Shown here piece after piece: positions 37,793 through 37,987 of a stretch of DNA of 64,000 nucleotides. Under the pieces are notes generated by a model, which saw nothing but the letters and a program-made list of their open reading frames with translations, ran no database searches and was not told where the DNA came from. The DNA is from a virus. Position numbers and translations under genes: made by a program. The stretch lies in the IMG/VR virus record IMGVR_UViG_3300023174_006147, positions 20,475 to 84,474 of that record; one strand, given 5' to 3'. Position 1 is the first letter of the stretch; the number at the start of each line of letters is the position of its first letter.

Positions 37793-37886
37793 TGGCGGGA
37801 CTTTTGGAATCGAACCATAACATGATACATGTTGCTGAAAACATTCGTTGGACGGAATGCTCCTACACCCAAGTAGGTTGAGTCCC
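37793..37886 (-). ncRNA. tRNA-like RNA with the family-A motif replacing the anticodon arm
   Basis: GGGACT/AGTCCC-GCCA; CATTC..GAATG-TTTTCAGCAA. Confidence 0.72.
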
Positions 37887-37894
37887 ATTAAAAT

Positions 37895-37987
37895 TGGTGG
37901 AGGGAATTGGAGTCGAACCAATTAATTTTGTGATGCGGTAGATATTCACTGGACTGAATACATTCTGCGCCATGCAGGATTCCCTCC
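37895..37987 (-). ncRNA. tRNA-like RNA with the family-A motif replacing the anticodon arm
   Basis: GGAGGGA/TCCCTCC-ACCA; TATTCA..TGAATA-TCTACCGCAT. Confidence 0.72.

Follow-up and report, generated by a model that had tools for sequence, protein, structure and literature searches.

Closed-Handle tRNA-Like RNAs without an Anticodon Arm in a Phage tRNA Array and Their Probable Link to a DUF2828 Protein

Introduction

What is the nature of an RNA that combines the acceptor stem, D arm and T arm of a transfer RNA (tRNA) with another hairpin in place of the anticodon arm? This question is raised by two tandem RNA genes, B1 and B2, located at positions 37793–37987 of a stretch of phage DNA 64,000 nucleotides (nt) long, hereafter the window, which corresponds to positions 20,475–84,474 of the IMG/VR record IMGVR_UViG_3300023174_006147. 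A preliminary examination of the letters alone (the sequence-only reading) had proposed two tandem CCA-ended RNAs at this place, had regarded them as circular permutations of another RNA family of the same DNA (family A) and had suggested that they may be chargeable adaptors. Both RNAs were confirmed and lie on the minus strand.

Each of them consists of the top half of a tRNA, including an acceptor stem with encoded NCCA, a D arm with GG and a T arm, and of a handle that replaces the anticodon arm. In our opinion, B1 and B2 are probably closed-handle members of a family of phage small RNAs that travels with a Ro60-like DUF2828 protein, and would act as permanent protein-docking mimics of tRNA.

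Structure of B1 and B2

The acceptor stem of B2 comprises seven perfect base pairs (bp) and is followed by A73 and an encoded CCA. Its D stem has 4 bp, with GG in the D loop, and a 10-nt spacer stands ahead of the T arm, which has a 5-bp stem and a canonical loop. In B1, six acceptor pairs and one C/A mismatch are followed by G73 and CCA, the D stem has 5 bp, and the T stem contains an internal A/A mismatch beneath a canonical T loop. The sequence-only reading had ascribed intact acceptor stems, CCA ends and T arms to both RNAs; this description holds in full for B2, while B1 is less perfect, with one mismatch in each of these two stems.

Right after position 26, both RNAs form a helix of seven positions with a 6-nt loop (GUCCAA in B1; GUCCAG in B2). 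The hairpin is followed by a 3-nt linker, TTT in B1 and CTA in B2, and then by CAGCA-A or CCGCA-U, respectively. A stem with a GUCCA-containing loop and a CAGCA/CCGCA motif were found by alignment in the place of the anticodon arm of both RNAs, as had been proposed, and neither has an anticodon stem-loop outside the handle.

Because they lack an anticodon stem-loop, B1 and B2 are unable to decode, and the idea of adaptors found no support in its original form. That they could nevertheless be decoding tRNAs with an unusual anticodon arm (loop of 6 nt) and a long variable arm is hardly credible. The program ARAGORN calls the B2 orthologues on related contigs (L382:1247-1338 and L386:4624-4716) 'tRNA-??? 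(cc)', taking the handle hairpin with its 6-nt loop as an anticodon arm, and such calls are a likely source of odd tRNA annotations in these phages. However, a stem of seven positions and a loop of 6 nt do not correspond to the 5-bp anticodon stem and 7-nt loop of a canonical tRNA, and the loops of homologues are unrelated to one another and vary from 4 to 6 nt. In the window, neither RNA was called by ARAGORN or by the Rfam tRNA model (RF00005), and no match to the latter was obtained even at an expect value (E) of 10.

The Central Arm as a Closed Version of the Family-A Handle

The reference for the central arm is provided by family A. Scanning of the minus strand revealed nine of these open-handle RNAs with a single architecture, namely a terminal helix of 7 bp, in most cases AGG...CCU, followed by a linker of 3 nt, by CNGCA and by a payload that varies, after which come the complementary strand and a final GU (GA in A1). 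When 80 DUF2828 loci of other phages and this contig were searched, the open-handle descriptor gave 579 matches, compared with 158 in shuffled DNA. The consensus of 223 distinct open handles of the AG/GG type has T at the second place of the linker, CAGCA-A and an A-rich strand ahead of the 3′ strand; G after the 3′ strand was a requirement of the collection, and U follows it in 185 of the 223.

All these parts of the handle are present in B1 and B2 in a permuted order: the 3′ strand with G(U), the 5′ strand, the 3-nt linker and CNGCA with A or U. Both RNAs have T at the second linker place and GU after the 3′ strand. The differences from family A are that the helix is closed by a loop and that the ends of the RNA form the acceptor stem and not an AGG...CCU handle. 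The suggestion of a circular permutation is supported by the presence of all the parts and by the use of one and the same site of tRNA-Asp, 29/30, in both topologies (see below).

A weight matrix was constructed from 201 open handles, all from other genomes, and scored over 168,916 positions of the contig. As a 16-mer, the handle of B1 ranks 16th and that of B2 65th, and without the first helix base they rise to ranks 5 and 18; the better ranks belong mainly to the nine family-A copies. When B1 is compared with B2, conservation outside the universal parts is highest in the central arm, with 20 of 29 columns identical; the corresponding values are 2 of 7 for the acceptor 5′ strand and 8 of 19 for the D region.

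An unambiguous alignment was obtained for nine closed handles, which come from seven phage lineages; C.GCA and the G after the 3′ strand are invariant in it. The sequence-only reading had made its proposal depend on conservation of CAGCA/CCGCA in homologues, and CNGCA was found in all nine. In this alignment 88.9% of the helix cells are paired, compared with 69% in shuffled alignments, none of which reached this value in 500 attempts; four of the seven pairs are changed on both sides, and sliding of the alignment by 1–3 columns reduces pairing to 33–46%. Taken together, the invariant C.GCA, the covarying helix and the matrix ranks show the central arm to be the handle of family A in a loop-closed form.

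The loops of the closed handles are 4–6 nt long and begin with G; five of the nine read GUCCAR, and the others keep the first G alone. Judging from the aligned sequences, the GUCCA loop is a recurrent but not an essential element. Two further observations concern the loop of B1 (37848-37853). GUCCAA includes UCCAA, which coincides with U33–A37 of the anticodon loop of the phage's own tRNA-Trp (42823-42898), and it may also be parsed as the GU that ends open handles, CCA and a 5′ A.

A covariance model of the closed handle gave 43 bits for B2, 41.7 bits for B1 and 14 bits for the next best place in the window; with three training sequences including B1 and B2 themselves, these scores show only that the window has no further copy. 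Two other places were considered. At 15924-15975, upstream of and overlapping the start of the open reading frame 15392-15934, there is a handle-like 5′ half with open-handle matrix rank 6. It was not accepted as an additional B-type handle; a clean 3′ strand is missing, so that it may be a leader element similar to A1 before the DUF2828 gene. A candidate near 35007-35034 was not accepted as B-type after reading. The positions of all the parts are collected in Table 1.

Table 1. Positions of B1, B2, their structural parts and associated features in the window.
Feature	Position	Strand	Basis
B1, 94-nt tRNA-like RNA, closed handle replacing the anticodon arm	37793..37886	−	sequence and fold; orthologue L382:1347-1440
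B1 G73 + CCA 37793-37796, acceptor 3′ strand 37797-37802, T arm 37803-37819	37793..37819	−	sequence and fold; orthologue
B1 small extra 4-bp hairpin before the T arm	37821-37831	−	sequence and fold
B1 linker 37838-37840, CAGCA 37833-37837, then A	37832..37840	−	alignment; matrix
B1 closed-handle hairpin: 3′ strand 37854-37860, loop GUCCAA 37848-37853, 5′ strand 37841-37847	37841..37860	−	matrix match from 37847; covariation; orthologue
B2, 93-nt tRNA-like RNA, closed handle replacing the anticodon arm	37895..37987	−	sequence and fold; orthologues L380, L382
B2 A73 + CCA 37895-37898, acceptor 3′ strand 37899-37905, T arm 37906-37922	37895..37922	−	sequence and fold
B2 linker 37939-37941, CCGCA 37934-37938, then U	37933..37941	−	alignment; matrix
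B2 closed-handle hairpin: 3′ strand 37955-37961, loop GUCCAG 37949-37954, 5′ strand 37942-37948	37942..37961	−	helix covaries across nine RNAs
DUF2828/DUF7788 protein gene, presumed partner; predicted Ro60-like fold (TROVE-like helical ring and vWA domain)	17725..19143	−	Pfam, AlphaFold2, Foldseek
A1–A3, open-handle RNAs (three) immediately upstream of the DUF2828 gene, serving as reference handles	19158..19466	−	minus-strand scan
A9, tRNA-Asp(GUC) with an open handle and circularly permuted order; counterpart in topology to the closed-handle tRNA-Asp of relatives	39497..39617	−	minus-strand scan

Orthologues and Structural Selection

Contigs from lake metagenomes contain true orthologues of both B2 and B1, arranged in the same order; these loci are short and end before reaching the DUF2828 gene. 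B1 and its orthologue differ in 10 columns, all of them within the acceptor or the handle helix, and pairing is kept or improved. In the handle, two pairs are changed on both sides, one of them by compensation and the other from a C/C mismatch to an A-U pair. B2 and its orthologues diverge only in the linker, in the base that follows the motif, in the spacer and at one junction position; the three strains compared have the same helices, loops and CCGCA.

This pattern of substitutions leads to the conclusion that the conservation of both genes in the related phages reflects selection on structure, and that they are not pseudogenes, as far as can be judged by sequence comparison. The acceptor-stem and T-stem mismatches of B1, one in each, could be taken as signs of decaying pseudo-tRNAs, i.e., neutral leftovers of handle-bearing tRNAs. 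Such an origin is, however, very unlikely, as all 10 differences in the helices of the B1 orthologue remain paired and a handle mismatch becomes a pair there, the conserved parts of B2 stay unchanged while its spacers vary, and both RNAs have an encoded CCA and a gene layout of the tRNA type.

Handle-Bearing RNAs of Related Phages

The search for relatives required descriptors of different strictness. The strict pattern (GUCCA loop, CNGCA and T arm) had no match in 40 related records; throughout IMG/VR it matched at least 118 stretches, at least six of which passed the hairpin filter, and among the matches listed only L108 resembled a real relative. A looser pattern of loop plus motif matched approximately at the control level. 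Most weak matches of the covariance model were discarded as apparently coding stretches, and a mini form in the record G039 was retained. The generic hairpin-plus-CNGCA descriptor has a background of about one match per 5 kilobases (kb) of coding DNA and was applied only near tRNAs.

A graded series of RNAs was revealed in this way. Complete, unpermuted tRNA-Asp(GUC) with a closed handle between positions 29 and 30 of the anticodon stem was found in G039 and G010, and L078/L275 contain the same tRNA with the handle at 28/29. Including spacers, the insert comprises about 42–48 nt. The 29/30 site is also the break point of two permuted family-A genes of the window, A9 (Asp) and A5 (Phe), in which the handle is open at the ends of the RNA and NCCA is already encoded in the acceptor loop. 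In G017, an RNA of the same kind has a handle helix nearly identical to that of B2 and a degenerate 8-nt anticodon loop. A closed-handle tRNA with an 8-nt anticodon loop was also observed in a 162-kb relative (L034:7528-7645; also L031 and L037), with a canonical tRNA-Asp about 90 nt upstream.

Further reduction is seen in L383 (about 1270-1360), where an acceptor stem, a small D-like hairpin and a closed handle are present and the T arm is absent. The acceptor stem of this RNA is identical to that of A9, and the RNA is followed by an open handle. Finally, mini forms of about 60 nt consist of a G-rich acceptor stem, an A-rich strand, a closed handle, CNGCA and G73-CCA, and nothing else. Mini forms were found in at least six lineages (G003, G039, L275, L281, L321, L326, L385), and their helices vary by compensating changes. 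When B1 is aligned to the mini forms, its D arm appears as one insertion and its hairpin with the T arm as another. As far as these sequences indicate, it is the handle and the CCA-ended acceptor stem that are retained across the series, whereas the anticodon, D and T arms are dispensable in turn.

The Asp copies of the relatives also allow another explanation, according to which the handle is an intron-like processing cassette at which the RNA is cut and religated, so that inserted forms would become mature tRNAs and permuted forms circular intermediates, with B1 and B2 as remnants of such genes. In a red alga, permuted tRNA genes are processed via circular intermediates. Moreover, removal of the cassette from the RNAs of relatives and from A5 and A9 restores a perfect 5-bp anticodon stem at 29/30 and an intact 7-nt Asp or Phe loop. 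This explanation is nonetheless distinctly improbable in our opinion. Removal of the insert to obtain a complete tRNA, applied as a test of an intron, succeeded only with the Asp copies of relatives and failed with B1 and B2; excision from these RNAs and from the mini forms would leave nothing useful, without any anticodon hairpin, yet they are conserved with compensatory changes. In G017 the anticodon loop decays and the handle stays. The same handle occurs on A1, A3 and A8, RNAs of 52–63 nt without a tRNA part, and the same arrays hold ordinary tRNA-Asp and tRNA-Phe genes, the canonical twins of the handle-bearing forms. A splicing endonuclease, RtcB and an Rnl2-type ligase (PF01974, PF01139, PF09414) were not found in this contig or in four relatives that are 95–100% complete, host enzymes, which could take over the reaction, lying outside this search. 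Since the central arm is kept where the anticodon arm is lost, canonical twins exist, the handle occurs on non-tRNA RNAs and no splicing enzymes were found, it is better explained as a permanent docking handle than as an intron.

The DUF2828 Protein as a Presumed Partner

If the central arm is a docking handle, the question arises as to what it docks on. The product of the DUF2828 gene of the window matches DUF2828 and DUF7788 in Pfam (E 4.5e-22 and 2.9e-49) and no other family. Its AlphaFold2 model, based on 15 homologues, has a predicted local distance difference test (pLDDT) score of 69. In a Foldseek comparison with the PDB, the top 13 matches were all Ro60/TROVE structures (E from 5e-8 to 1e-4, template-modelling (TM) score about 0.5), including frog and human Ro60, Rsr of Deinococcus and Ro60 of the Thermus phage phiLo. 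By analogy with these proteins, the DUF2828 protein is presumably the Ro60-shaped partner that docks the handle RNAs.

The connection between this protein and the RNAs is based on their occurrence. Both in the window and in G003, the DUF2828 gene is immediately preceded by open handles; in G003, a mini form is located 1.3 kb upstream of the gene beside three open handles. Four of the seven contigs recovered by means of a B-type RNA also encode DUF2828, and the other three are fragments of 8–12% of a genome. One of the four is a 92%-complete phage whose copy of the protein is just 38% identical.

Several observations weigh against B1 and B2 being closed-handle RNAs of a Ro60-like DUF2828 protein. 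On the side of the RNAs, the first helix base deviates from the A or G of open handles, and the A-rich strand before the 3′ strand, which is strong in open handles and mini forms, is reduced to 1 nt in B1 and 3 nt in B2. On the side of the protein, the pLDDT and TM values above are those of a moderately confident model, there is no TROVE match by sequence in Pfam and no sequence match in the PDB, and the gene is 19 kb away from B1 and B2. The link of handle RNAs to DUF2828 consists of co-occurrence and analogy.

The same distance speaks for a closed handle that functions with another partner, either a different phage or host protein or, as an RNA-only element, in processing, stability or tertiary docking. 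In addition, Rnp1A, a protein with RNA recognition motifs, is the reported binder of the Class I RNAs of Dictyostelium, which have a similar short stem at their ends, a neighbouring motif and CUGU as the 3′ end (PMC7919456). Although worth considering, another partner seems unlikely to us, as open handles cluster immediately upstream of DUF2828 in two phages, are enriched across the 80 DUF2828 loci, and B-type RNAs co-occur with the DUF2828 gene even when the protein has diverged to 38% identity. Permanent docking on the DUF2828 protein is thus the reading that we prefer, and we hold it to be probable.

Genomic Setting

The window originates from an 84.5-kb IMG/VR contig, estimated to represent about 22% of a large phage genome, and DNA near-identical to it is present in lake and freshwater metagenomes. 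A reference phage collection contained no close phage and gave tRNA-sized matches only. A search for syntenic loci with a neighbouring protein of 199 amino acids as an anchor gave nothing, and with a PP-loop protein the matches reached 30% identity only.

The minus strand carries a tRNA array with 41 ARAGORN calls, 37 of which have an encoded CCA 3′ end, and many further small RNA genes are interspersed among the tRNAs. The array tRNAs have common A/T-rich leaders, and the genes of B1 and B2 have the same layout as their neighbours. Around B1 and B2 there are five more CCA-ended tRNA-like RNAs (37319-37426, 37430-37492, 37672-37790, 38081-38170 and 38184-38305) with remodelled centres lacking the handle motif. 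Two family-A RNAs, A4 and A7 (34038-34138 and 36452-36538), combine an open handle with a tRNA body consisting of D, anticodon and T arms; they have the anticodon UCA and no true acceptor stem, and are called tRNA-SeC by ARAGORN. The array also contains genes of a zeta-toxin/AAA_33-type P-loop kinase (33278-34033, plus strand) and an ADP-ribosylglycohydrolase (29785-30666, minus strand).

All sequencing runs consist of assembled contigs, which hold no information on expression, ends or splicing. The sole RNA library, a lake metatranscriptome, includes contigs at 34104-34287 and 37362-37574 of the array and none over B1 or B2. The former, of 188 nt, spans the permuted tRNA-Phe RNA A5 and a part of A4 with eight differences, and could be due to DNA carry-over. 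In a contig of a related strain from a freshwater DNA run, the stretch 37575-37941 is swapped for 221 other letters; this stretch comprises the RNA 37672-37790, the whole of B1 and the portion of B2 after the handle helix. The junction coincides exactly with the end of the 5′ strand of the B2 handle, which hints at modular exchange at the handle.

Proposed Mode of Action and Significance

B1 and B2 would be transcribed together with the tRNAs of the array and would mature as these do, with RNase P generating the 5′ end and the 3′ end being shortened as far as the encoded CCA. Stacked in the place of the anticodon stem, the handle helix would then dock on the Ro60-like ring as the helices of Y RNAs dock on Ro60, and the resulting particle would display the acceptor/elbow module of a tRNA with a free CCA end. 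It may be speculated that the displayed module is a tRNA mimic serving as a tether or decoy for tRNA-binding enzymes or for host nucleases that target tRNAs, or, alternatively, that the 3′ end of the displayed RNA itself enters the ring as a substrate. Opening of the acceptor loop of A5 and A9 by RNase P, also a speculative step that recalls YrlA of Mycobacterium smegmatis, could bring the open, permuted copies to the same shape as the closed forms.

A more far-reaching proposal, which we put forward tentatively and consider doubtful, is that these RNAs belong to a second kind of Ro60/Y-RNA particle built of modular handle RNAs, the closed forms of which present a free acceptor end on the ring, charged or as bait (a protein-mounted tRNA decoy). 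If this is true, the handle can be wired either at the ends of an RNA or inside a tRNA body, where it forms one of the arms, and the end with G73 or A73 and CCA is charged or lures host enzymes that attack the 3′ ends or bodies of tRNAs during infection.

The role of the tRNA-like part of bacterial Y RNAs is an open question on which these RNAs bear. They represent a natural experiment in which a divergent phage protein, presumably Ro60-shaped, is accompanied by one handle joined to whole, permuted, truncated and minimal parts of tRNA. In B1, B2 and the mini forms, selection appears to keep the handle and the CCA-ended acceptor stem, which suggests the testable idea that the ring either presents tRNA 3′ ends or acts upon them. 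At about 60 nt, the minimal RNA could be used as a defined reagent for studies on binding and structure. For annotation it is of practical importance that tRNA finders miss or mis-call these genes.

Comparison with Known Systems

Ro60 and Y RNAs are conserved from bacteria to humans, and the Ro60 (Rsr)/YrlA systems of bacteria and mycobacteriophages are the nearest parallel. In both cases, a ring-shaped protein of the TROVE plus vWA type, predicted here, is encoded near small RNAs, and YrlA, like B1 and B2, combines a protein-binding helix with a tRNA-like module of T arm, D arm and acceptor-like stem. In fact, YrlA RNAs have a tRNA-like domain, and in M. smegmatis RNase P cleaves YrlA, which also acquires CCA in vivo (Chen et al. 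2014, PMC4201824). The ends of YrlA form the Ro-binding helix, while the handle of B1 and B2 is internal and their ends form a genuine acceptor stem with an encoded CCA; the handle motif (helix, 3 nt, CNGCA) is unlike the conserved motif of YrlA, and the DUF2828 protein, in contrast to Ro60, does not match TROVE by sequence. Searched with the YrlA model RF02553, the window had no match reaching the gathering score, and the part 36400-38600 had none even with E allowed up to 10.

Full-text searches of the literature on DUF2828 and phage Ro60 RNAs yielded no description of these RNAs, and their layout was present in no paper or RNA catalogue that was found; a survey of jumbo phages mentions merely that some phages encode a TROVE protein. 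The anticodon-less and mini forms, the Asp-centred series that joins both topologies and the compensatory changes in true orthologues are new in this analysis.

Class I RNAs of Dictyostelium, described in dictyostelids only, have a short stem joining the 5′ and 3′ ends, a conserved motif by the 5′ strand and a CUGU 3′ end (PMC7919456). By this description, and not by a model, they resemble open handles, which end in CCU-GU and have CAGCA(A) beside the 5′ strand. They differ in being eukaryotic, in carrying payloads that are not tRNA-like and in that a closed form is not described.

The complete tRNAs of the relatives, with an insert of 42–48 nt in the anticodon stem, are reminiscent of archaeal tRNAs with introns of the bulge-helix-bulge type at non-canonical positions. 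Unlike these introns, the insert persists after the loss of the anticodon arm in B1, B2 and the mini forms, and no splicing enzymes encoded by the phages were found in this contig or in the four relatives of 95–100% completeness.

Within the phages themselves, the closest relatives of B1 and B2 are the open-handle RNAs of family A, with which they share the helix length, the linker, CNGCA with A or U, the unpaired G(U) and the occurrence in phages encoding DUF2828, and from which they differ in the permuted topology, the loop-closed handle, the loss of the AGG/CCU helix ends and the very short A-rich opposing strand. No paper on the family-A RNAs was found. Circularly permuted RNA genes are known from two-piece transfer-messenger RNA (tmRNA) and the permuted tRNA genes of Cyanidioschyzon. 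There, as here, the genes of one RNA family follow either the standard or a permuted order, and the RNAs fold into the same shape. Those are, however, RNAs of translation with known processing, whereas B1, B2 and family A share a presumed docking handle, and both orders are present in one phage group. The two circular permutations of one putative ribonucleoprotein RNA within a single group of viruses represent a rare RNA design.
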